Below are positions 13,992 through 27,186 of a DNA stretch of 27,186 nt, piece by piece. Source of the stretch: a virus (taxonomy: Duplodnaviria > Heunggongvirae > Uroviricota > Caudoviricetes); IMG/VR virus record IMGVR_UViG_2537561936_000020, positions 1 to 27,186 of that record; one strand, 5' to 3'. Position numbers and translations under genes: made by a program. The first letter of the stretch is position 1; each line of letters starts with the position of its first letter. The notes beneath the pieces are model-generated. The model saw only the letters and a list, made by a program, of their open reading frames with translations, did no database searches and was not told the origin of the DNA.

Positions 13992-15743
13992 ATGATTCAG
14001 GACGCTTTTGTGCGCCAGCGTGCGCGGCAACTTTACTGGCAGGGTTATCCGCCCGCAGAAATATCACGTCTGATGGGAATAAACCCGAACACGATTTATG
14101 CGTGGAAAAAACGCGACCAGTGGGATGAAACACCACCCGTGCAGCGTGTCACGCAGTCCATCGATGCGCGCCTCATCCAGCTTACTGAAAAACAGAATAA
14201 AACAGGTGGTGACTTTAAGGAAATAGACCTGCTGACCCGGCAGCTTAAAAAACTGCATGATGGCCAGCCGGATGCGACGGTCACAGGAAAGAAAGGCCGG
14301 GCGAAAAAACTCAAAAATCATTTCACGCCGGAACAGATTGCCGCACTGCGGGAAAAAATCATCAGCAGGCTGGAGTGGCATCAGCGGGGCTGGTTTGACT
14401 CTCTGACCCTTTGCAGGGAAGCCGGGATACGTAACAGGATGATCCTGAAATCCCGACAGATTGGGGCGACCTGGTATTTTGCACAGGAAGCACTGCTGAT
14501 GGCACTGCGTGACGATGTGGCACAACCTTACCAGCGTAACCAGATTTTTTTGTCTGCGTCGCGTCGTCAGGCGTTCCAGTTTAAAAGCATTATTCAGAAG
14601 GCCGCGGCTGAAGTTGATGTGGAGCTGAAAGGGGGCGATAAAATCATCCTCTCCAACGGTGCAGAGCTGCATTTTCTTGGTACTTCTGCTGCGACGGCAC
14701 AGTCCTACACGGGCAATTTTTATTTTGATGAATTTTTCTGGGTCAGTCGCTTTGCTGAACTGCGCAAGGTGGCTGGCGCTATGGCAACCCTCAGCGGACT
14801 GCGGCGCACCTACTTCTCCACGCCATCCACCGAAACGCACGAGGCATACGCCTACTGGAACGGCGACCGCTGGAACGAGAAAAAGGCCTCGCATAAACGC
14901 CAGCGTTTTTCTGTGGACTGGAAAACGCTGCATAACGGACTTATCTGCCCTGACCGGACATGGCGGCAGATTGTCACGCTGGAAGATGTGGTTAATCACG
15001 GCTGGAAACACACCGATATTGACGAAATCCGCGATGAAAACACCGAAGACGAGTTCCGCAATCTCTATATGTGTGAGTTTGTCCGCGAAGGGGAATCGGC
15101 ATTTAACCTGAATATCCTGATTGGCTGCGGTGTTGACGGATACGACGACTGGAAAGACTGGAAACCTTTTGCTCCCCGCCCGATGGGAAATCGTCCGGTA
15201 TGGATTGGGTATGACGCAAACGGCAGCAGTGGCAACGGCGACAGCGGCGCTGTGTCCGTGGTGGTTCCTCCGGCTGTTCCTGGTGGCCGTTTTCGAACGG
15301 TGGAGACGCGACGCGTTCAGGGGCTGGAGTTTGAAGAACAGGCCAGAGTCATTGAAGAGTTCACGTGTCGCTACAACGTGGAACACATCGGCATTGATGT
15401 GACGGGCGGGAACGGGGAGGCTGTTTATCAGATAGTGAAGCGGTTTTTCCCTGCTGCTATTCCGTACACCTTCACGCTGTCATCCAAACGGTCGCTGGTA
15501 CTGAAAATGCTGCAAATAATGCGTGCCGGACGGTGGGAATACGATCGCGCCGAACGCGAGCTGGTCGCGGCCTTTAACGCCGTGCGTAAGGTGAAAACAC
15601 CGGGCGGCTTTATCACTTACGAAACGGACCGCGCGAGGGGGATCAGCCACGGTGACCTTGCGTGGGCAACCATGCTTGCTGTCATTAACGAACCGATTGG
15701 CGGCGAAGGAGAAAACGAGCGTTTCACGGTTATGGAGTTCTGA
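13992..15743 (+). CDS. P: Terminase ATPase (large) subunit P
   Basis: 583 aa, P2 gpP-like throughout. Confidence 0.9.
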   Translation: MIQDAFVRQRARQLYWQGYPPAEISRLMGINPNTIYAWKKRDQWDETPPVQRVTQSIDARLIQLTEKQNKTGGDFKEIDLLTRQLKKLHDGQPDATVTGKKGRAKKLKNHFTPEQIAALREKIISRLEWHQRGWFDSLTLCREAGIRNRMILKSRQIGATWYFAQEALLMALRDDVAQPYQRNQIFLSASRRQAFQFKSIIQKAAAEVDVELKGGDKIILSNGAELHFLGTSAATAQSYTGNFYFDEFFWVSRFAELRKVAGAMATLSGLRRTYFSTPSTETHEAYAYWNGDRWNEKKASHKRQRFSVDWKTLHNGLICPDRTWRQIVTLEDVVNHGWKHTDIDEIRDENTEDEFRNLYMCEFVREGESAFNLNILIGCGVDGYDDWKDWKPFAPRPMGNRPVWIGYDANGSSGNGDSGAVSVVVPPAVPGGRFRTVETRRVQGLEFEEQARVIEEFTCRYNVEHIGIDVTGGNGEAVYQIVKRFFPAAIPYTFTLSSKRSLVLKMLQIMRAGRWEYDRAERELVAAFNAVRKVKTPGGFITYETDRARGISHGDLAWATMLAVINEPIGGEGENERFTVMEF

Positions 15744-16789
15744 TGAGCAGAAAAAATAAAAAAGTGCGCATGAGTTCACGCATTGATCTCGCTGATGCGC
15801 TCAGGAAAGAATCATCGCTCAGTGCATTCACATTTGATGGTCCTTATCGCCTGACCGGGCATGACCTGCTGGACAATATGTACTGTGCTGATAACGGGCG
15901 GTGGTATGAAACCCCGGTGGACTGGTACGGTCTGGCAAGAGCTGCCCGGCAAACGTCCTGGCATCAGTCTGCGCTTTACTTTAAGCGCAATGTATTGCTC
16001 GGTTGCTACATCCCGCACCCGCTGCTTTCCCGGCAGGATTTCTCGGCGCTGGCGCTGGACTGGTTTGTGTTCGGTAACGCATTCCTTGAGCTTCGGAGCA
16101 ATATGCTCGGCGAACCGCTTAAATTACGGCACGCCCTGGCGAAATACATGCGACGCGGAAGCGATCTTGAATCATGGTGGTATGTGCAGGATGGCAAGGA
16201 CGCGTTCCAGTTTCGCCCTGGCAAAGTGTGCCACCTGATGAATCCGGATATTAACCAGGAAATCTACGGCATGCCGGAATATCTTGGCGCATTACTCTCG
16301 GCCAGCCTGTCTCATTCGGCGGACATGTTCAGAAAACTGTATTACGACAACGGATCCCACGCCGGGTGCATCATCTACATCGGTGCAGCGCAGGTAAACC
16401 GCGAAAGCATGGACTCCCTGAAAGAAACGTTACAGGGTGCGCGTGGTGGTGGTGCGTTTAAAAACGTGCTCATCCACGCGCCCAACGGGGGCAAAGAGGG
16501 GGTGCAAATTTTGCCGTTCCAGCAGATCACCGCAAAGGATGAGTTCATGAATGTTAAGGCGGCATCCCGTGATGATGTGCTGGCTGCGCACCGCGTTCCG
16601 CCGCAACTGATGGGGGCAATGCCGGGCGAAAAAAGTGCGTTTGGTGATGTGGAGAAGGCCGCGCGGGTTTACGCAATTAACGAGCTGATGCCCGTCATGG
16701 AGGCCATGAAGCACATCAATGACTGGCTTGGCGAAGAGGTGATCCGCTTTAACCCTTACGCACTGTTAGACACCCAGCCCACATCCTGA
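15743..16789 (+). CDS. Q: Portal (capsid portal) protein Q
   Basis: 348 aa, P2 gpQ-like. ATG overlaps the P stop (TGATG). Confidence 0.9.
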   Translation: MSRKNKKVRMSSRIDLADALRKESSLSAFTFDGPYRLTGHDLLDNMYCADNGRWYETPVDWYGLARAARQTSWHQSALYFKRNVLLGCYIPHPLLSRQDFSALALDWFVFGNAFLELRSNMLGEPLKLRHALAKYMRRGSDLESWWYVQDGKDAFQFRPGKVCHLMNPDINQEIYGMPEYLGALLSASLSHSADMFRKLYYDNGSHAGCIIYIGAAQVNRESMDSLKETLQGARGGGAFKNVLIHAPNGGKEGVQILPFQQITAKDEFMNVKAASRDDVLAAHRVPPQLMGAMPGEKSAFGDVEKAARVYAINELMPVMEAMKHINDWLGEEVIRFNPYALLDTQPTS

Positions 16790-16815
16790 CGCGCTTCGCT
16801 TGTCTGCTGCTTCGC

Positions 16816-16841
16816 CGGGGCATAAAAAATTTATGCCCCGA
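16816..16841. other. Perfect palindrome downstream of Q (possible terminator or part of the cos region)
   Basis: CGGGGCATAAA-AA-TTTATGCCCCG. No U-tract follows on the + strand. Confidence 0.35.
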
Positions 16842-17243
16842 CTCTCCAGCTCCTGTATCAATCAGATAATTTCACGACGCTTTCCTGCTGATTGCCATCA
16901 TCGACAGTCAGACTCTTACGCAATCCCACCGCGTTGACTGCATGTTCTCGCCGTCTCAGTGCGATTTTGACGGCCTTACCTTTCACCCCATCAAATCAAA
17001 AGCTCTCACGTCTTTTTCATGCTCAGCGTGAGAAATATGGCCATTCTGTTGTATCTCTGCGACATCGTTCAGGGAATGCTATTTACCCCCTGAAACGTGG
17101 GCTGTTCCCCCGTCACCTGCGCGCAGAAAAAACGCGTTTTTTTGTGCACGTACGGATCCTTGACGGATCCAGCCACCACGCGGGCCGGAAGTACAAAAAG
17201 TCGTTCAAAAAAATTGTGCAAACTTGTGCACTATCGTGCAAAC

Positions 17244-17266
17244 AAAAAAAGCGCCTTATCGGCGCT
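17244..17266 (-). terminator. Rho-independent terminator for ORF 17276..17545
   Basis: On the - strand: stem AGCGCC/GGCGCT with a 5-nt loop followed by T7, immediately after the stop codon. Confidence 0.65.
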
Positions 17267-17275
17267 TCAAAAGTA

Positions 17276-17545
17276 TCAATTGTTGCTGTTTATTAATCGC
17301 CAACCACGAACATATGCTTCATAGGCATCTCTGTGCCTTACAGTTCCAGCCTGGCTAAACGGAATGTTAGCTAAAACTAAATCATTCTGAGCCATAGCGC
17401 GTCCTTCAAGCGCATCTTTTATGCCTAGCTCAAAAGCACAGGCAGCGCATTTGTGCCGACCTTCTTGTCCTTGATATTCAGGGAGAGACAGAAATGTTGG
17501 ATTATAACGATGAGGGTTCTTGCAAATACCTGTTTTAGCCCGCAC
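17276..17545 (-). CDS. Hypothetical protein in the old/tin-equivalent cargo position
   Basis: 89 aa. GTG start with GAGGT 9 nt upstream; own terminator downstream. Contains a C…H…CxxC pattern; function not recognised. Confidence 0.5.
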   Translation of the reverse strand: MRAKTGICKNPHRYNPTFLSLPEYQGQEGRHKCAACAFELGIKDALEGRAMAQNDLVLANIPFSQAGTVRHRDAYEAYVRGWRLINSNN

Positions 17546-17682
17546 TTTATTTACCTCATAGGAAAAATATGCGTGCCTTTACAGAGGTGCGTGTAAGCAA
17601 TAAAATATACGACGCACATTTTGATTTACTTCGGAAGGCACGCATATCAGGTTAAGTGAGTCCGACCGAGTTTTACGCCCCA

Positions 17683-17715
17683 ATAGTTGCTGCTATTGGG
17701 GCGTTTTGCATGGAC
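17683..17715 (+). other. Stem-loop with short T-tract (candidate + strand terminator or sRNA 3' end)
   Basis: GCCCCAATAG-ttgctg-CTATTGGGGC followed by GTTTTG. Confidence 0.35.
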
Positions 17716-17909
17716 AATGCCGCGCAATTATCTTGTCGCTCACAATGCGAACGATCTTACAAAAAGGCACATTACTGTCAAGATAATTGATCGTTTTAAT
17801 CGATAGATAATAGACAATCTATTTGTTTAACAGATCGATTATTGAAGTAAGTGTGCCAAATGGAATGATACTGTCTCTATAAACGTGAGCATTTTTCGCG
17901 CAGATGCTT

Positions 17910-18221
17910 TTACTCAGGAAATAACGCCCGGATATTCCCAGCCATCTGGCTGGTTATCTTAGCCACTGGTGCAGACTGTGCTTCAAACTTTTTTGAGCTG
18001 ATTTGTGTCACAGGTAACATCTCATCATCAGCCCATGCGGCCAGTCGGTAAGCCTCTGCCGGATTCGTCTTCAGAAGTGCCAGCCCGGCCAGAAAAGCCA
18101 CGCGTTGGCCGCTTTTGCGGGCTTCTGGTGTAAGGCTGTCCAGCCAGGCGCATGCTTCTCCTTCGTTCTTGACGGCGGCGGGCTTCAGATAGAAACTTAT
18201 CCGTCTGGTTGGTGTCGTCAT
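17910..18221 (-). CDS. parR: ParR-like centromere-binding protein
   Basis: 103 aa from MTTPTRRISFYLKPAAV…AWLDSLTPEARKSGQRVAFLAGLAL, recalling the R1 ParR N-terminus. AAGGAG lies 8 nt upstream, inside the parM 3' end. ORF-track start 18356 rejected. Confidence 0.7.
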   Translation of the reverse strand: MTTPTRRISFYLKPAAVKNEGEACAWLDSLTPEARKSGQRVAFLAGLALLKTNPAEAYRLAAWADDEMLPVTQISSKKFEAQSAPVAKITSQMAGNIRALFPE

Positions 18222-18225
18222 TGGT

Positions 18226-19185
18226 TTACTCCTTGTCCATTGCGTACAGCCCATTAACCAGAGCAAACTGTGGCACCCCGTCCGCGATGAAAGTCGCATT
18301 AACTCCGCAGGCTTCGCGGATAGCGGGTGCCACAATCTCCGCCCCGCCACCGACAACCATCACCCGCCCGTAACCCGAAAAAACCGCCAGCGCGCGGATC
18401 ACGCGTTGTTTCAGTGTTTCTTCCTTTTCACGAATAACCGCCATCAGGCTGGCGTAATGCGCGTCATTGTGGATGTGCTGGCGCAGCCAGGCTTCATCAT
18501 GGCGATGTTCGATAATGGTATTGGCGATGTGGTGACTGGTGCGCATACCGTTAGTGGCCATCACCGACAGTACGGCATCGGCCATAAGAGAAACGCCTAC
18601 GTGTGGATCGCAAAACACCTGGCTGATACCTGCCAGTTGCCCCTGAACCTTTGCCACATCCAGCGTGGTTCCGCCCAAATCCACAATCAGCAGGGATTCA
18701 AACGGACTCATGTCAGCCAGTGCTTTAAAGCCAGCCGGAATGGATTCAGGCATAACCCGTACGTTACGGATAGTGAATGCTTCGCCGTTCTGGTACTCCA
18801 CCGGGCGCATGACGTTCGCTTTTTTGCGGTTGATGTTGGCCATGTCCGGCTGTGCGTTTGTGTCGAAATATTCGCTCAGTGGCAGGGTAACAACCACATC
18901 CACTTCCTGTGGCGTGATGTCTGATTTGACCAGCGCGTGATGAATGGCAATGACATTCACATCGCTGTACTGGTATTGCGTGTCGGTCGTCTGGACAAAG
19001 CGATCGCTGACCGGATCAAAACCATAGCGCACGCCATCAAGCATGTAGTTAGCAGGCTGCGAGCCACCGAACGGCGCAGACCATTCCGACTTGAAGCTGT
19101 TCGGGCTGATGGCGTTGCGGCGTTCGCCGTTCTCAGTCCATGCCAGCTTGATGTTGGTGGAGCCGTCGTCGATGTAAATTTTCAT
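18226..19185 (-). CDS. parM: ParM/StbA-like actin-type segregation ATPase
   Basis: 319 aa. MKIYIDDGSTNIKLAW…ISPNSFK…QYSDVNVIAIHHAL…EVDVVVTLPL…VVGGGAEI, closely following the R1 ParM pattern as recalled. Confidence 0.85.
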   Translation of the reverse strand: MKIYIDDGSTNIKLAWTENGERRNAISPNSFKSEWSAPFGGSQPANYMLDGVRYGFDPVSDRFVQTTDTQYQYSDVNVIAIHHALVKSDITPQEVDVVVTLPLSEYFDTNAQPDMANINRKKANVMRPVEYQNGEAFTIRNVRVMPESIPAGFKALADMSPFESLLIVDLGGTTLDVAKVQGQLAGISQVFCDPHVGVSLMADAVLSVMATNGMRTSHHIANTIIEHRHDEAWLRQHIHNDAHYASLMAVIREKEETLKQRVIRALAVFSGYGRVMVVGGGAEIVAPAIREACGVNATFIADGVPQFALVNGLYAMDKE

Positions 19186-19215
19186 GTCGGTTTTCCTTAT
19201 GTTGATTAATTAATC

Positions 19216-19328
19216 GTTTACGGGATTCTGAAATCCCGTTTTTGCCTGTTTTGTGCGCGCTTCATATATCGCTGCGCGTTTTTTGCTCATTTACGGGATT
19301 CGTGAGTCCCGTTTCTGTCTGTTTTTTG
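19216..19328. repeat. Candidate parC centromere/operator: two ~40-bp direct repeats each containing a 20-bp palindrome
   Basis: ACGGGATTCTGAAATCCCGT (19220-19239) and ACGGGATTCGTGAGTCCCGT (19293-19312), 73 bp apart, each followed by TTT(T/C)TG(C/T)CTGTTTT(G/T)TG. Lies directly upstream of parM. Confidence 0.6.
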
Positions 19329-22087
19329 TTTCCACTGGTCAGGCCACCCCGCAGCAGGTCTGCTTTGCGGCTGGCGCGTTCAGTGGTTTCACTGATTCTC
19401 TGTGCGTGCTCTGCGTCGCGGATGGCGCGCAGCATGTCAGAAAGCACGGTAACGGGTGTTTTCATGGTGTTCTGGTCCTGCTGAAGTGTGGATGCCAGGC
19501 GTGCGGCGGCTTCAGGGTCTGATGCCCCCAGCTGTGCCAGATAGCTGGCGACCGGGTTATGGCGGATCTCCGTGCTGCTTACGCCATGATTACGGCTCAG
19601 ACGCTGCCAGAGCTGCGTGATTCGGCTGTCCGGGCGGGTATCCGGTTTGCGTACAATTTCAAATCCCTGCGGTGCAATGATGCTGCCGTCAACGTACAGA
19701 CTGCCGCCCCGTAACAGGTGCTGCATCTGTTGTTCACCGATATGCAGGCCGAGAGATTCAGCAGACTCCCGCCATTCTTTAGCGAGTAACTCGTGGTTAT
19801 CAGGCAAAGGCCGCTGCTGTTTGCGGCTCTGTGTCCAGTTCTGCATTTCATCGCTGCTGTTTTTTGCCTGTTTGTCACGAAGCGAACGCATCAGCGCCCG
19901 GCGTTCGTGCCGTTTCAGTGAGCGCATCCATTCATTTACTTCAACGCCGTCAGGAAGCTGCGGCCACGGTGCTGGCCGTTCTTCCGGCTGTTCTGTCCCG
20001 TTGTTGCCTGTTTCCTGTACACGGGGACAGTTATTGCCACGAGTCCAAGGGGCGGCAGGGCCGCCCTGAAGGTCAAAACCATTTTCGCGGGCGCTGTCTT
20101 CCGCTTCCGGTTTACGTCTTACCAGCTTCCAGTTATCCGGATGCGTGCACACACGGGAGGATTCCCCGATGAATGGCGACCAGATCCCGTAAATCTGTAC
20201 ACTCTGTTCGCCGTAATCGTTCAGCTCATCTGCGAGGTCGTAGGCTGTGCGAATCAGGTAGTCCTTGCGCGGAACAAGTACGCCACCCTGTTTTTCAATG
20301 TAGGTGGCAAAACATCCGGCATCAGCGGCAGCGAGTACCGCATCCATTGCGTCATCCTTCAGCCGTTGCGGGCCTTCCGGGTTGCGTGCCATCTGGCTGG
20401 CAAGGCGGCGGAGTTCACGCCACACCTGACGGGAGGGGATGCCAAAGAACTGGAACTGGCGGACCCGGTGAAGGCGCGCCCAGCCGATGGCTCGCTCCAC
20501 GCTCTCGGCCATTGATTTACCTGTTTCGTGGTCAACGCGTGGCTTGCCCGTTTTCGGGTCGATGCCATCCACGGCGCGGCTGTCCAGGTTCTTTCCGATG
20601 TAGGTGGCGATGTAGCTGGTTGGCGTGCCTTTTGAGCCGTCGACGTACTCCGCCTTAAAGCGTGGGGTAATATCATCACCCAGCTCGTGACGATCTTCCT
20701 GAATGGCAATATCGCGGGTGTGGGACACAATGGTGTCGATTTCTTCCGGATGAGCAAAGACCATCATATGCCAGTGCACGGTGCCGTCATGGTGAGGCTC
20801 CACCGTGCGGATGCCATACCAGCGCAGGCCGTCGCGGTTCAGTTTCTTGCGGACCGCTGCAAAAAACGTGTTAACCAGGTAATCGCTGGAGTCGCGCATG
20901 GTGGCCCCGTTCCATTTGGGATTCGGATGACCGTTCTCTGTTGTGGCGTGGTATTTTGACGGGCAGGTGACAGTTAGAAACACCGCTTTGTCGCCACGGG
21001 CTTCGGCCAGAAGTTCCAGCCCCTTCATGGTGGCCATCATTTCTGCCTTACGGTGAACCGGGTTACTTACTCCCGCGTAATACACTGTCTCGAGATCAAT
21101 CGTGAAACCGTCTTCGTTTTCCAGTTCGAAGCTCTTCAGGAAGTCGCGGGTTTTCTCGCGCTGTGCGCGAAACTCGCTTAACGCGTCCTGGCTCAGATAG
21201 GGTGATGTTTTTCTGGAAACCAGACAGGCGGCGCGGAGTTGTTCTTCTCTCCACTCACAACGTAACAGCCACAGTTTGCGTTTCCACCAGTCCGCACAGG
21301 TCAGGCGAAGGATTGCGCCCGGCAGCAGTTCCGTATCCGGTTCGCTCTTGTTCAGGGCTTCGTAATGTGGCGGCATGATGTGCAGGCGTAATGCGATACG
21401 AGCCAGCATCCGGTAAGCCTTCAACATTACATCCATGGTCAGCTCGCCATCTCTGGCACCAAAGCCATCGCAGAGTGTTTCGAAGGTGCTGCTGAACATC
21501 GCCGCGGTCATGGTGGCCAGCGTCTGTATCTGGTGCTTGTTGAGCTGCGGCAGGTAAAGCAAATCGTCCAGGCGTTCGCGCCCGGCAAGGGAGCGATAAC
21601 CCGGTGTCAGCCAGCGTCCGTCAGTGCGATCCAGACGTTCGAATATTTTGCGCAGGGTTCCGCGTGCATAGCGTTCCGCCTGCCAGCTCTTTTTGCCTTT
21701 CTGGCGATCGGCTTCCTGTTTTTTGCGCAGGAAAGAGAGGTGGCGGCTCAGTGGTTCACGCAGATAAACAGGTAGTGCCTTTAGTGTGGCAAAGGCACGG
21801 GCTACTGGGTCTTGTTCTGTTGCCCGGCGCTTACTGATGATGCTCTGTGCCAGCTTTTCACGCTGTCCGGCTTCCTCAAGGGATGCCATGAGTTTTTTAC
21901 CCATGGCGGATTGTGCGAAAAAGGCTTCTTCCTTCGCTTCCTGTTCTTCCTGTGCCCTTTTGTCTGCCTCAAGGTAGTAACGGATGGCGCGTTGCAGGTC
22001 GGTTTCAGTTTCCTGCCTGCGCTCCGTAAACCTGGCCGGATCAATGGCTGGCCGTGGTTCATTCCAGCTCCATGCAAACTCGCTCAT
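19262..22087 (-). CDS. A: Replication initiation endonuclease A (rolling-circle Rep, P2 gpA-like)
   Basis: About 941 aa. HUH-type motif DGTVHWHMMVF and tyrosine pair TSYIATYIGK. Start chosen at Met10 (ATGA overlap with the upstream gene). Confidence 0.85.
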   Translation of the reverse strand: MSEFAWSWNEPRPAIDPARFTERRQETETDLQRAIRYYLEADKRAQEEQEAKEEAFFAQSAMGKKLMASLEEAGQREKLAQSIISKRRATEQDPVARAFATLKALPVYLREPLSRHLSFLRKKQEADRQKGKKSWQAERYARGTLRKIFERLDRTDGRWLTPGYRSLAGRERLDDLLYLPQLNKHQIQTLATMTAAMFSSTFETLCDGFGARDGELTMDVMLKAYRMLARIALRLHIMPPHYEALNKSEPDTELLPGAILRLTCADWWKRKLWLLRCEWREEQLRAACLVSRKTSPYLSQDALSEFRAQREKTRDFLKSFELENEDGFTIDLETVYYAGVSNPVHRKAEMMATMKGLELLAEARGDKAVFLTVTCPSKYHATTENGHPNPKWNGATMRDSSDYLVNTFFAAVRKKLNRDGLRWYGIRTVEPHHDGTVHWHMMVFAHPEEIDTIVSHTRDIAIQEDRHELGDDITPRFKAEYVDGSKGTPTSYIATYIGKNLDSRAVDGIDPKTGKPRVDHETGKSMAESVERAIGWARLHRVRQFQFFGIPSRQVWRELRRLASQMARNPEGPQRLKDDAMDAVLAAADAGCFATYIEKQGGVLVPRKDYLIRTAYDLADELNDYGEQSVQIYGIWSPFIGESSRVCTHPDNWKLVRRKPEAEDSARENGFDLQGGPAAPWTRGNNCPRVQETGNNGTEQPEERPAPWPQLPDGVEVNEWMRSLKRHERRALMRSLRDKQAKNSSDEMQNWTQSRKQQRPLPDNHELLAKEWRESAESLGLHIGEQQMQHLLRGGSLYVDGSIIAPQGFEIVRKPDTRPDSRITQLWQRLSRNHGVSSTEIRHNPVASYLAQLGASDPEAAARLASTLQQDQNTMKTPVTVLSDMLRAIRDAEHAQRISETTERASRKADLLRGGLTSGNKKQTETGLTNPVNEQKTRSDI

Positions 22088-22473
22088 GGCTGGTATCCCG
22101 TCACGCGCTGCCACTCCTGCGAGAAGATGGCGGAAAGGCGGTTAAATTCAGCGGTGTATTCACTCAGCGAGGCACACCCGCCAGCAGTGCGATGCGCCAG
22201 CATTGCCGCGAATACGGAGGCCGGGGAGTCGTAATACGCCAGCAGTGATTCGCCGTGTGGTGTCAGGCAGTGCAACGCCAGCCCGTGTGGTGTGAAGTCC
22301 ACGCGGTAGCAGTCGTCTACTGTGAAATAAAGGGTGTCCGCATTCTCCGGTTTTGTGGTGCGTGCTCTGTTGTCACGACCACGGATGTAGAGATCAAATA
22401 ATCCCTGAAGAATGGGAGCCAGACGGGTGTCCTGTGTGCGCACCCATCTTGTGAAGTCATGAGCGTCAATCAT
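22084..22473 (-). CDS. Hypothetical early protein
   Basis: 129 aa ORF, translationally coupled to A. No recognisable motif. Confidence 0.55.
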   Translation of the reverse strand: MIDAHDFTRWVRTQDTRLAPILQGLFDLYIRGRDNRARTTKPENADTLYFTVDDCYRVDFTPHGLALHCLTPHGESLLAYYDSPASVFAAMLAHRTAGGCASLSEYTAEFNRLSAIFSQEWQRVTGYQP

Positions 22474-22545
22474 GCTGCAATTCTCTTTACTACAGATGTG
22501 CGAAGGCCTCCCGCCGCAAGGTGCAGGAAAGGCCTGGAACAGGAA

Positions 22546-22776
22546 TTAATGGAGTTTGTTTTGCTGCTGAAAGAGCTGCTGAAGCTCGCGCAGATCATCC
22601 GCCAGATAGCTGAAAACAGCGGATGAATAGAGGTTTGAAAGTTCGCAGCTACGCTCATGCAGCATATTGATGTGCATGATTTTAGCGACGCGGAATGCGC
22701 GGGAAAGTCTGCGGTTGATTTCAGTCTGGATGTGACGACGCTCCGCGATAGCGCGGTGCTGTTTGCGGTTTGCCAT
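22546..22776 (-). CDS. Hypothetical small basic protein
   Basis: 76 aa, protein-like composition; GAAGAGG 9 nt upstream of the ATG. Overlaps the long ORF 22470..23402 in another frame. Confidence 0.45.
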   Translation of the reverse strand: MANRKQHRAIAERRHIQTEINRRLSRAFRVAKIMHINMLHERSCELSNLYSSAVFSYLADDLRELQQLFQQQNKLH

Positions 22777-22958
22777 GGTGTTTGGCCTCTTCGTTTGTGA
22801 GTTTTTGGATACTCACCAACCAGAGTTGAGAATCTCGGGGTGGCGAGACGTACGGGGTTCTCAACACCGGCAAACGAAGAAACCGGCCCGACCGAAGTCG
22901 GCCCCGTACGCCCCACCATAATTCGTGTGCGAAAAAGACGTGGCAATACAGTACGCAC

Positions 22959-22979
22959 AAAAAAACCGCTGGCGCGGTT
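22959..22979 (-). terminator. Rho-independent terminator inside the early operon
   Basis: On the - strand AACCGC-GCCA-GCGGTT followed by TTTTTTT. Confidence 0.55.
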
Positions 22980-23089
22980 GTGCGCTTCGTTTGTCAGCAG
23001 GTTGAGAATCCCGGCACCCGTTTTATGAGGTGCAGCAGAAATGTAACCTGACTGATTGCGGCATGGCAAGCGGTTTTTTTGTGTGTGCA

Positions 23090-23402
23090 TGCTCTGATTT
23101 CTTACTGGTTCAGAAAAAAAATCAAAAACCTTGTCAATGCGTTGCAACAGCTCTTGCTGTATTGCTTCCGGCGTTTCCGGTTCGCCTGGCGCCTCCAATG
23201 TCGCGCAGAAATCAGCGATTTCATGATGGAGCGTCAGGCGAATGGCAGGAGCCGTGGTTCTGGCGTGCTCCAGCTCATCCAGCAATGCCAGCACCGCAGA
23301 CGGCGAGAGCATTGCGCGAAATGCCAGTAATTTTTGAGGTGTTGCCATTCGTTGCAGGGCAAATGCCAGTTCGCGTAGCTTCTGGTGGTTGATGGTGCTC
23401 AT
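23090..23402 (-). CDS. Hypothetical early protein (3' boundary uncertain)
   Basis: ATGA overlap with the upstream gene. First ~100 aa look protein-like; the ORF stays open to 22470 through a hairpin-rich segment of atypical composition. Confidence 0.4.
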
Positions 23403-25405: not shown

Positions 25406-25732
25406 TCATGCAGCAAAATTAAGAAAGCCTAATCCCAAATCTTCCGCCAGCTTCTTGGCTTTCTTAAGCCAGTGATTGCGCCAATCTTTACGCTCAGGAG
25501 GAAGCTGTTTCGTTGCGTCATAGACCATTTCGAGCCACTCATTCCAAAGGATGAGAAGACGGCGCGAACTCCCTTCCTCGCCTAAAACCTCGCGCTCAGT
25601 GGTTAGAGGGATGAGTCGACGCTCTACCAACTTTCTTACGGCTGATTCGGTCTTACCTGTGCGGCGGGAAAACTCATCGACGGTGATGGGGTCTGGGATC
25701 TTAAACAATGCCCTCAATAGTTCTTCATTCAT
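25406..25732 (-). CDS. cox: Cox-like regulatory protein / excisionase
   Basis: 108 aa from MNEELL…PDPITVDEFSRRTGKTESAVRKLVERRLIPL…, resembling P2 Cox (…IPYQEFAKLIGKSTGAVRRMIDKGKLPVI…). Divergent from C. Confidence 0.75.
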   Translation of the reverse strand: MNEELLRALFKIPDPITVDEFSRRTGKTESAVRKLVERRLIPLTTEREVLGEEGSSRRLLILWNEWLEMVYDATKQLPPERKDWRNHWLKKAKKLAEDLGLGFLNFAA

Positions 25733-25827
25733 GTGATAATCTCCCTGTTTGGGGTATTTCTTGCGACGGATGCCCCAAATCAAACTCATTTGTATAAACA
25801 TTAATACAGACGTTGGAGAATTGCAAC
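25733..25827. promoter_or_regulatory. Divergent C / cox promoter-operator region
   Basis: Imperfect inverted repeat TTTGGGGTA…TGCCCCAAA (25748-25779) and an extended -10-like TGTATAAA (25791-25798) ahead of C. Confidence 0.45.
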
Positions 25828-26130
25828 ATGCGTATGACTATTGGAGAGCGCATAAAAATCATGCGTGAAAGCGAGAGACTTACTAGCCTCCCGGATACAG
25901 CAAAAATGCTTGGTTTAAACCGTGATGCTCTGTGGAGATATGAAAGCGGTAAAACTATCCCTAATGCTGAAGTAATTGAGCAAATACTAAACAACCCCAG
26001 ATTTGAGAAATATGCGTTGTGGTTTATGACTGGGAAAATTGCGCCTGAATCCGGGCAGATAGCTCCGGCTCTCGCACACTATGGGCAAGAGCCAACGGAC
26101 TTACCCCCATCCGAAAGGAAAATTGGCTAA
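25828..26130 (+). CDS. C: Immunity repressor C (P2 C-like HTH)
   Basis: …LWFMTGKIAPESGQIAPALAHYGQ… is near-identical to the P2 C C-terminus as recalled. Start among ATGs at 25813, 25828 and 25834 is uncertain. Confidence 0.85.
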   Translation: MRMTIGERIKIMRESERLTSLPDTAKMLGLNRDALWRYESGKTIPNAEVIEQILNNPRFEKYALWFMTGKIAPESGQIAPALAHYGQEPTDLPPSERKIG

Positions 26131-26196
26131 CCCTTTATTATTCTTACGTTTTACAAACTGGAAATGTCTTTCCTCGTTTCACCGGAGGGCTTGCCA

Positions 26197-27186
26197 ATGG
26201 CAATTAAAGCGCTCGATGGTGGACGGTATAAAGTGGATGTTAGACCGCGTGGCCGAAGTGGACGTCGGATTCAGCGGATTTTTAAGAAAAAGGCAGATGC
26301 AGTGGCCTTTGAGCGTTATGTTCTCAGCCACATGCACGATAAGGAATGGCTTGAAAAGCCAACAGAGCAACGTCATCTCTCAGATCTGCTTCCGTTATGG
26401 TGGGAATTGGGTGGACGCAATAAGCCATATGCTAACGGCGTTCTAACCAGGTTGAAAAAAATCATCAAAGAAATGAATGATCCAAGGGTTAGCCAGATTA
26501 ATGCTCGTTTCATGGCCGCTTATCGAAGCTCCCGTTTATCCTTGGGAGTAAAAGAGTCTACTGTTCGGCGTGATGAGTCGGATCTCGGAGGAATGTTTAC
26601 ACTCCTGGCAAATGCCGGGGAATTTCACGGAGAAAATCCGCTCCGCGCCCTCCCCTCTTTGAAACGAAAATCACCCGAAATGACGTATCTCACCACGGAA
26701 GAAATCGCCAAATTACTGGATGCAGTAAGCGGTGATGCCCGGCGGATTACGCTACTTTGTCTCAGTACTGGGGCGAGATGGGGAGAAGCGAAAAATCTGC
26801 GCGCGGAACACATCATCAATAATCGCGTGACGTTTAACAAAACTAAAAACGGAAAAGTTCGAATTATTCCTGTCTCTGATGAAGTTGTTAGTGAGATCAA
26901 AACAAAGAAATCCGGCCTTTTGTTTGACGTCAATTATGAGGAATATCGCAAGGTGCTTCGCAGTGTTAAGCCAGACCTACCAAAAGGACAGGCTGTACAT
27001 GTTCTACGCCATACCTTTGCTGCTCACTTTATGATTAATGGAGGAAATATACTTACGCTCCAGCGAATTATGGGGCACGCCACGATCCAGCAAACTATGA
27101 CCTATGCGCACCTCGCTCCTGATTTCCTCCAGGATGCAATTTCACTTAATCCGTTAAAAGGAGGCATCCACATTTCATCCACATAA
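26197..27186 (+). CDS. int: Tyrosine integrase (P2 Int-like)
   Basis: MAIKALDGGRYKVD…LSTGARWGEA…HVLRHTFAAHFMINGG…AHLAP. GGAGGG sits 7-13 nt upstream. The stop codon is the last three bases of the window. Confidence 0.9.
   Translation: MAIKALDGGRYKVDVRPRGRSGRRIQRIFKKKADAVAFERYVLSHMHDKEWLEKPTEQRHLSDLLPLWWELGGRNKPYANGVLTRLKKIIKEMNDPRVSQINARFMAAYRSSRLSLGVKESTVRRDESDLGGMFTLLANAGEFHGENPLRALPSLKRKSPEMTYLTTEEIAKLLDAVSGDARRITLLCLSTGARWGEAKNLRAEHIINNRVTFNKTKNGKVRIIPVSDEVVSEIKTKKSGLLFDVNYEEYRKVLRSVKPDLPKGQAVHVLRHTFAAHFMINGGNILTLQRIMGHATIQQTMTYAHLAPDFLQDAISLNPLKGGIHISST

Follow-up and report, generated by a model that had tools for sequence, protein, structure and literature searches.

A 27,186-base stretch of viral DNA (IMG/VR record IMGVR_UViG_2537561936_000020, positions 1 to 27,186; the whole stretch is called the window here) comes from a P88-like (Xuanwuvirus) prophage of the P2 family in E. 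coli. By its sequence, this very common prophage carries, next to its replication gene, a genuine actin-type ParM/ParR segregation cassette whose centromere-like site has two palindromes. We lean towards reading the cassette as an intact type II (ParMRC-like) module, part of the replication backbone in P88-like phages, that acts on extrachromosomal circles of phage DNA. The features that this reading draws on are as follows.

17910-19330, minus strand: parC-parM-parR cassette, comprising two open reading frames (ORFs) and the repeats upstream of them.
18226..19185, minus strand: parM, 319 aa, with an AGGA ribosome-binding site; actin-like segregation ATPase (ParM/StbA).
17910..18221, minus strand: parR, 103 aa, ATG at 18221 and stop at 17910; ParR/StbB-family adaptor.
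18229..18234, minus strand: Shine-Dalgarno AAGGAG of parR, read from the sequence, within the 3' end of parM and 7 nt ahead of the ATG at 18221.
19214..19255: proximal 42-nt repeat, with a palindrome at 19220-19239 (ACGGGATTCTGAAATCCCGT); putative ParR site 1.
19287..19328: distal 42-nt repeat, with a palindrome at 19293-19312 (ACGGGATTCGTGAGTCCCGT); putative ParR site 2.
19202..19210, minus strand: ATTAATCAA motif, between the proximal site and the parM ribosome-binding site; candidate -10 (ATTAAT).
19262..22114, minus strand: gene A, rolling-circle replication endonuclease (Pfam Phage_GPA, 435 bits), directly upstream of and co-directional with parM.
26164-27186: tyrosine integrase, kept in the element.

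The cassette is flanked by gene A on one side and by the portal and terminase genes (13992-16789) on the other, and P2 carries tin and old in the corresponding A-to-cos interval. An initial annotation of the window had described, in this old/tin position, an actin-like ParM homologue, a downstream ParR-like protein with its own Shine-Dalgarno, and two upstream direct repeats of about 40 bp built around 20-bp palindromes and spaced 73 bp apart; it had likened the whole to the parC-parM-parR organization of type II plasmid partition systems and had remarked that an integrase is kept. We find every one of these elements where it was placed, and the description was accurate, with gene order and upstream repeats agreeing with a type II layout. 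The family identity and the layout have thus stood, whereas two further suggestions, that the cassette is cargo and that the element may persist as a plasmid-prophage, have not, for the reasons given below. The cassette genes themselves are already known. As DNA, the cassette shares 94-98% identity with Escherichia phage P88, Xuanwuvirus P884B11, Citrobacter phage phiSM and others, its proteins are 100% identical to those of many IMG/VR contigs, and the genes are annotated in P88 and in thousands of genomes, with P88, phiSM and related records already labelling their counterparts, at 95-100% identity, as ParM or partition protein. The annotations that we saw lack the two-palindrome site with its conservation, as well as a P2-family ParM clade tied to gene A, and we regard these as modest additions.

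Profile searches place the 319-aa protein inside the ParM/StbA family. The Pfam domain StbA_N (PF06406) matches residues 1-157 at 269.8 bits (cut-off 24.6) and the ParM C-terminal domain (PF21523) matches residues 159-316 at 231.5 bits (cut-off 27.4), so that the two together cover residues 1-316 of the 319. A phmmer search of the PDB matches R1 ParM (1mwk_A) at 313 bits, residues 1-316 against 1-318, and the phosphate-binding and adenosine motifs (DDGSTNIKL, DLGGTTLD and GGGAE) are kept in the alignment. The protein is assigned to PHROG 691, ‘partition protein’. A search of NCBIfam gave only sub-threshold matches for ParM and none for ParR, and PADLOC gave zero matches for ParM, ParR and an adjacent 89-aa ORF; with both cassette proteins negative in PADLOC, we dropped a reading of the cassette as a defence system.

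The second gene, parR, has its ATG 4 nt past the parM stop and a length that agrees with the P88 annotation. Pfam PF10784 matches ParR residues 7-72 at 83.4 bits (cut-off 25), and the protein is assigned to PHROG 2515, also ‘partition protein’. A single-sequence phmmer search of ParR against the PDB found nothing. A profile built from phage ParRs only matches a single PDB chain, the pB171 ParR/StbB structure 2jd3, weakly (E 0.0037), aligning query positions 8-76 with residues 10-77 of the chain, its N-terminal DNA-binding domain; adding plasmid ParRs to the profile brings this match to E 8e-15. An alignment with R1-type ParR has 25% identity, and the two proteins have in common an N-terminal R..F.L.P strand region, an R....R.A..AG.AL helix and a C-terminal KN..L motif, while the E. 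coli phage ParR is without a middle segment that the other aligned ParRs have. Overall, ParR consists of a conserved N-terminal TRRISFYLKP, a hypervariable linker at about aa 68-88 and a conserved C-terminal N-I-x-x-L-F-P-E helix motif, and the near-invariant tail QITSQMAGNIRALFPE comes after the linker. Residues N96, F101 and P102 are invariant in 29 aligned E. coli-type ParRs, as are the same residues (numbered N97, F102 and P103) in 16 ParRs that include other genera, and the C-terminal motif lines up with ..KKNAMKLIN of R1-type ParR. An AlphaFold2 (AF2) monomer model (predicted local distance difference test score, pLDDT, 66) has helices at 20-29, 32-52, 54-61 and 87-100, an unstructured N-terminus and a disordered stretch at 62-86.

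The cassette is under selection, to different degrees along parR. In the 80 best IMG/VR matches, which supplied all values of the ratio of nonsynonymous to synonymous polymorphism (pN/pS) and of intactness given here and are biased to intact copies, parM has a pN/pS of 0.06-0.10, which is strong purifying selection. Among the unique cassettes parM is intact in 41 of 41 and parR in 40 of 41. The pN/pS of ParR rises from 0.13 over aa 1-35 to 0.21 over aa 36-70 and 0.51 over aa 71-104. ParR also occurs as mosaic alleles. In ST131, O157:H7 and many other genomes the match to the cassette covers only positions from 18167 up, and these genomes have ParR alleles, 48-62% identical, in which only the TRRISFYLKP strand and the C-terminal tail are retained, while ParM is at least 97% identical. 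Divergent ParR alleles adjoin the same palindromes (for example, in the Escherichia albertii locus described below). The adaptor diversifies (parR codons ~19-103, window 17910-18167) while the ParM motor and the DNA sites do not.

The two upstream repeats are 81% identical and lie 73 bp apart from start to start. The proximal palindrome is 20 bp long, with 8-bp arms around a 4-nt centre, and the distal palindrome, also of 20 bp, is complementary at 8 of 9 arm positions. The proximal core starts 53 nt upstream of the parM ATG (-53) and the distal core at -126; the distal repeat falls within the final 21 codons of gene A, a detail beyond the initial annotation. A degenerate form of the palindrome pattern is found at these two places only, with 0.07 occurrences expected from dinucleotide shuffles of the window, and the core YGGG-N10-CCCR has exactly two matches in the 27,186 bases. 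The CGGGA/TCCCG arms hardly change across 41 distinct E. coli-type cassettes, whereas the palindrome centres vary. The pair of YGGG-N10-CCCR cores recurs in one prophage each of Hafnia (-129/-56) and Plesiomonas (-132/-60), so that a spacing of 72-73 bp is kept in three lineages though the flanks are unalignable and the ParMs only 62% identical. In Hafnia an ORF other than gene A lies upstream of the paired sites; since the sites stand behind a different ORF at a fixed distance to parM, they travel with parM and not with A. In the window, the C-terminal tail of A (19265-19327) evolves neutrally: the A codons over the distal site have a pN/pS of 0.97, and two variants frameshifted in an A-run at ~19320 are tolerated. 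The element is thus not accounted for by constraint on the coding sequence. The conserved half-site spacing, pair spacing and distance to parM form the pattern expected of a protein-binding DNA site, and the comparative support for the repeats as the putative cognate cis site of ParR is real, though indirect.

We think it unlikely that the repeats are something other than a centromere, namely an operator only, a pair of plus-strand terminators that shield A from antisense transcription out of the convergent cargo slot, or hairpins of an A-parM RNA. T-rich runs do follow both E. coli palindromes on the plus strand and were scored terminator-like, the palindromes fold as RNA at -8.7 and -10.7 kcal/mol, the cargo genes of ST131-type relatives are convergent and run towards parR, and the sites are only two in number. 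However, the Hafnia and Plesiomonas sites form weak RNA hairpins (-4.1 to -4.9 kcal/mol, with 4-bp arms and 10-nt centres) and do not conserve the T-run, yet they keep the spacings and the distance to parM. Based on this comparison we rejected a terminator or RNA hairpin as the main role of the repeats. The operator alternative is compatible with a centromere, because R1 parC serves as operator and centromere alike.

The A protein, at 950 aa, is 31% identical to P2 A and ~190 aa longer. We found no terminator-like sites on the minus strand between the A stop and parM, which fits co-expression with the early replication operon. The ATTAATCAA motif is common to E. coli, Hafnia and Plesiomonas, where it stands 12-17 nt after the proximal site between unalignable flanks; it is below the promoter-scan threshold, and we infer that it may function as a promoter.

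The initial annotation had treated the cassette as cargo, and its distribution argues otherwise. Of 5426 complete E. coli genomes, 1304 (~24%) have the cassette, the O157:H7 and ST131 lineages among them. At a coverage of at least 80%, parMR is found in 1278 genomes and the same type of gene A in 1320, so that ~97% of the genomes with this type of A have parMR. ParMs that are 54-62% identical occur in Hafnia, Plesiomonas, Serratia and Enterobacter prophages, in the same position between A and portal and with a PF10784 protein next to them. When 40 loci were sorted by tblastn, every ParM of at least 54% identity adjoined P2-type genes and none of 52% or less did so. A neighbour-joining tree groups the phage-linked ParMs in a single clade, separate from the plasmid ParMs. 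In the plasmid database, six records that are 95-99% identical are the prophage itself and all other ParMs are below 60%, the closest at ~52%; in a phage database of 50,697 records, ParM homologues are found in P88-like phages and in the P1-like phage-plasmid D6 (47.5%) only. A scan of contigs with two N-terminal peptide patterns gave 32 loci, and the taxonomic breadth that it indicates is a lower bound. On these comparisons parMR, co-directional with A, linked to its type and syntenic in prophages of five other genera, is a conserved backbone module and not variable cargo.

Three of the loci deserve separate mention. In Escherichia albertii NBRC 107761 (L093, 44086-57042), ParM is 99%, A 92% and ParR 54% identical to the window, and portal and terminase are 30-35% identical. 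By this mosaic, A and parMR move as a module and recombine among P2-family phages with different head genes. A 226-kb contig labelled Vagococcus sp. WN89Y (L094, NZ_JBQPOM010000071.1) contains this E. coli-type prophage at 97-99% protein identity, and a contig in a metagenome-assembled genome labelled Lachnospiraceae (L118) bears a ParM of enterobacterial type; in each case the probable cause is contamination or mis-binning of a public assembly.

In complete genomes, 1450 of the 1452 E. coli copies are on chromosomes. Since this phage integrates and hardly ever turns up as a plasmid, the cassette most likely acts on the circular genome in its extrachromosomal phases, and we propose the following mechanism. 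ParR dimers would bind both YGGG-N10-CCCR palindromes through the invariant TRRISFYLKP strand, at sites that are 73 bp, or about seven helical turns, apart and immediately upstream of parM. The C-terminal helix of ParR would capture the ends of ParM filaments, and ATP-driven polymerization of ParM would push ParR-bound DNA molecules apart; the proximal site would probably double as an operator for autoregulation by ParR. After infection and before integration, such movement may help both daughter cells to inherit a circle. After induction, it may spread or position the monomeric circles that arise from A-dependent rolling-circle replication, as AlpAC does for CGP3 (see below). The most specific form of this proposal, in which P88-like and related P2-family phages have, within the gene A replication module, a phage-specific ParMRC lineage that serves as a cytoskeletal positioner of rolling-circle monomers and unintegrated circles by means of a minimal two-palindrome centromere, we put forward tentatively, as possible rather than probable.

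A number of observations weigh against a module that acts on phage circles in this manner. A Foldseek search of the PDB with the AF2 monomer of ParR gave nothing significant. A repeat search over 400 bp with seeds as short as 6 nt gave no further sites, so that the putative centromere consists of two sites and not of a tandem array of 4-10 iterons, and a canonical ParR ring cannot be taken for granted on such a parC. In the Serratia/Enterobacter branch the cis layout differs, with inverted arms of 14-20 nt set 26-28 nt apart and a CCGTTTAAACGG palindrome. A sigma-70 promoter scan near parM gave no site at threshold (9/12). In the literature on the cassette we found annotation-level mentions only and no experimental or expression data; ORF35 of phiSM is given as a ‘fitness’ factor (PMC6456863), and the part of the supplements of an O157 proteome paper that was searched held no usable expression evidence. 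Truncated ParM products make up ~1/5 of database entries (clusters P0006, P0009 and P0017), and parM is split into four pieces in the record of phage 503458, so the system is dispensable for maintenance of the prophage. Lastly, a defective P2-like remnant in E. coli O157:H7 F8092B (L125, 2184612-2188785), in which an insertion sequence (IS3) and a tail-fibre assembly gene come directly after parR, is without the cos/portal/terminase side, and its parM (319 aa) and parR (104 aa) are annotated as intact. An intact parMR in such a remnant could mean, rather, that the cassette has a role in the lysogen.

ParMR made from the prophage, to the benefit of host or prophage, might exclude or destabilize incoming replicons with a compatible parC, or the cassette might be a repurposed cytoskeletal element; we hold either to be improbable, though this is one of the two alternatives that survive best. 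Besides the O157:H7 remnant, the cassette sits in the slot that P2 uses for lysogenic conversion, and ParR alleles diversify outside the DNA-binding strand. In some bacteria, chromosomal ParMR systems are reported to have roles other than segregation (PMC12270681; bioRxiv 10.1101/2025.06.27.661541). However, PADLOC finds no defence match, the plasmid ParMs are at most ~52% identical, and R1-type and pOXA-48-type parC are unrelated to the phage sites, so cross-reaction with plasmids is unlikely. The orientation shared with A, with no intervening terminator, suggests expression in the early operon, and the linkage to the replication gene is tight across genera.

Action on excised or newly injected circles is also to be distinguished from the suggestion in the initial annotation that the element persists as a plasmid-prophage, that is, as a stable low-copy extrachromosomal replicon partitioned by ParMRC in the manner of P1, N15 and D6. 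This we consider very unlikely. Three observations speak for it: D6 employs a StbA-type ParM, a Plesiomonas relative is a phage-sized contig of 32 kb, and a 34,461-bp circular ‘plasmid’ record (NZ_CP148288.1) is a complete copy of such a phage. Yet a 100% identical phage is integrated in a sister strain of the last of these, so the simplest reading of NZ_CP148288.1 is that the excised form was assembled. The Plesiomonas contig retains the integrase and ends 141 bp beyond its gene, at the expected end of the attachment site (att), which fits an excising prophage rather than a plasmid. The near-exclusive chromosomal location of the E. coli copies is not that of an autonomous replicon, and we saw no plasmid-type replicon besides A. 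Integrase, a C-like repressor and a Cox-like gene are kept, together spanning 25406-27186, and in the closest genome (SCU-105) the prophage is integrated beside yecA. We tried and rejected two other candidates for an episomal copy: pNJS001-2, a 438-kb PLSDB ‘plasmid’ that bears fliC, yecA, araFGH and otsBA and is by this gene content a chromosome fragment, and ‘Escherichia phage 520873’, a prophage cut out as a linear piece that includes the host gene yecA and has frameshifts.

The two weakest alternatives can be dismissed briefly. That the cassette is a decaying relic of past recombination with a plasmid, with no current function, could be read from the truncated and fragmented ParMs noted above, but it is effectively refuted by the selection on parM, the intactness of both genes, the monophyletic phage clade and the synteny across genera at 54-62% identity. 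We give equally little credence to the repeats as part of the gene A replication origin (a nick site or an accessory ori element): the distal repeat is within the A ORF and the P2 ori is within P2 gene A, but the P2 nick-site segment aligns ~720 bp away, at 20027-20056 of the window in a protein-guided alignment, and the Hafnia sites stand behind another ORF at a distance fixed to parM and not to A. The ori nick region of this element is likely at about 20027-20056, although searches of the window for the P2 nick sequence, exact or with 3 mismatches, did not find it; a search across the window for the P2 cos sequence with up to 3 mismatches was likewise negative.

The nearest well-studied counterpart is the ParMRC system (StbA/StbB/parC) of the plasmids R1 and NR1 (IncFII), which has the same order of cis site, parM and parR. 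R1 ParM has the same length and gives a full-length match, with ~46% identity to R1-type parM by tblastn, and R1 ParR is of the same Pfam family and shares the N-terminal strand and C-terminal KN..L motifs; in contrast to the phage protein it has a middle helical segment. R1-type parC also lies directly upstream of parM and has two blocks with G/C-triplet cores, its sequence being an A/C-rich array of two 46-nt blocks with CCCA cores, which the GGG core of the phage sites echoes. In R1, ParR binds two sets of five 11-bp direct iterons, and two iterons are enough for binding (PMC4949242), whereas the phage has two 20-bp palindromes. The R1 host replicon is a low-copy plasmid and not an integrating P2-family phage, and the phage ParMs form their own clade. 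In the case of pB171, the ribbon-helix-helix fold of ParR was not recovered by the phage ParR monomer model or by the fold search. Among phages, D6 demonstrates that tailed coliphages can use ParM-type partition; however, it is a 91-kb extrachromosomal plasmid-prophage whose ParM is no closer than those of plasmids, while P88-like phages integrate. The best functional analogy is the AlpA/AlpC/alpS system of prophage CGP3 in Corynebacterium glutamicum, whose substrate is phage DNA excised as a circle, which depends on the system for efficient replication (PMC4446434). There too, the genes belong to an integrated prophage and code for an actin-like filament former and, in the same transcript, a DNA-binding adaptor, but the host phylum is unrelated, the actin-like family is distant from ParM and the operon, alpAC, is adaptor-first. 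Finally, the tin and old genes of P2 occupy the same A-to-cos map interval; they differ in being variable cargo, convergent with A and under their own promoter.

Other features of the window are context for the cassette.

16790..17909: variable cargo slot, between parR and the portal/cos side and outside the partition cassette.
17276-17545, minus strand: 89-aa ORF in the variable slot; PHROG 3941 (unknown function), 165 bits.
22836-22923, minus strand: C4 antisense RNA (RF01695), Rfam gathering-level match, 79 bits.
22959-23033, minus strand: isrK Hfq-binding RNA (RF01394), Rfam gathering-level match, 62 bits.

The contents of the slot differ among P88, ST131, O157, Serratia (HicAB) and Enterobacter (KAP NTPase) elements, and window positions 17600-17909 are missing from P88. 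The 89-aa ORF had no match in Pfam, NCBIfam or PADLOC and is labelled ‘hypothetical protein’ in SCU-105 and phage 520873. A promoter-like TTTACA-17-TAAAAT at 17578-17606 on the plus strand is followed at ~17678-17710 by a GC hairpin with a T-run, and a small transcript of ~100 nt could be encoded at 17578-17710 (plus strand); no Rfam family matched this interval at the gathering threshold. Both RNA matches in the early region upstream of gene A are within a 310-aa ORF (22470..23402) that has no Pfam match, and this locus resembles the c4/ant immunity modules of P1/P7 type, here in a phage of the P2 family.

Strong purifying selection on a partition machine inside an integrating phage is an unexpected setting for such a system. 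If the cassette were merely an idle module that has already been annotated, nothing would change, since its identification alone adds nothing to current annotation. If it does position or segregate phage circles, the idea of a phage cytoskeleton, as in AlpAC and PhuZ, would reach ordinary temperate coliphages, and the two palindromes would offer a minimal two-site centromere in which to study how ParM filaments are captured by ParR-DNA complexes. In that case such a system would have been shown for the first time in an integrating phage of Enterobacteria, and AlpAC of CGP3 would have a Gram-negative counterpart that about a quarter of sequenced E. coli carry.

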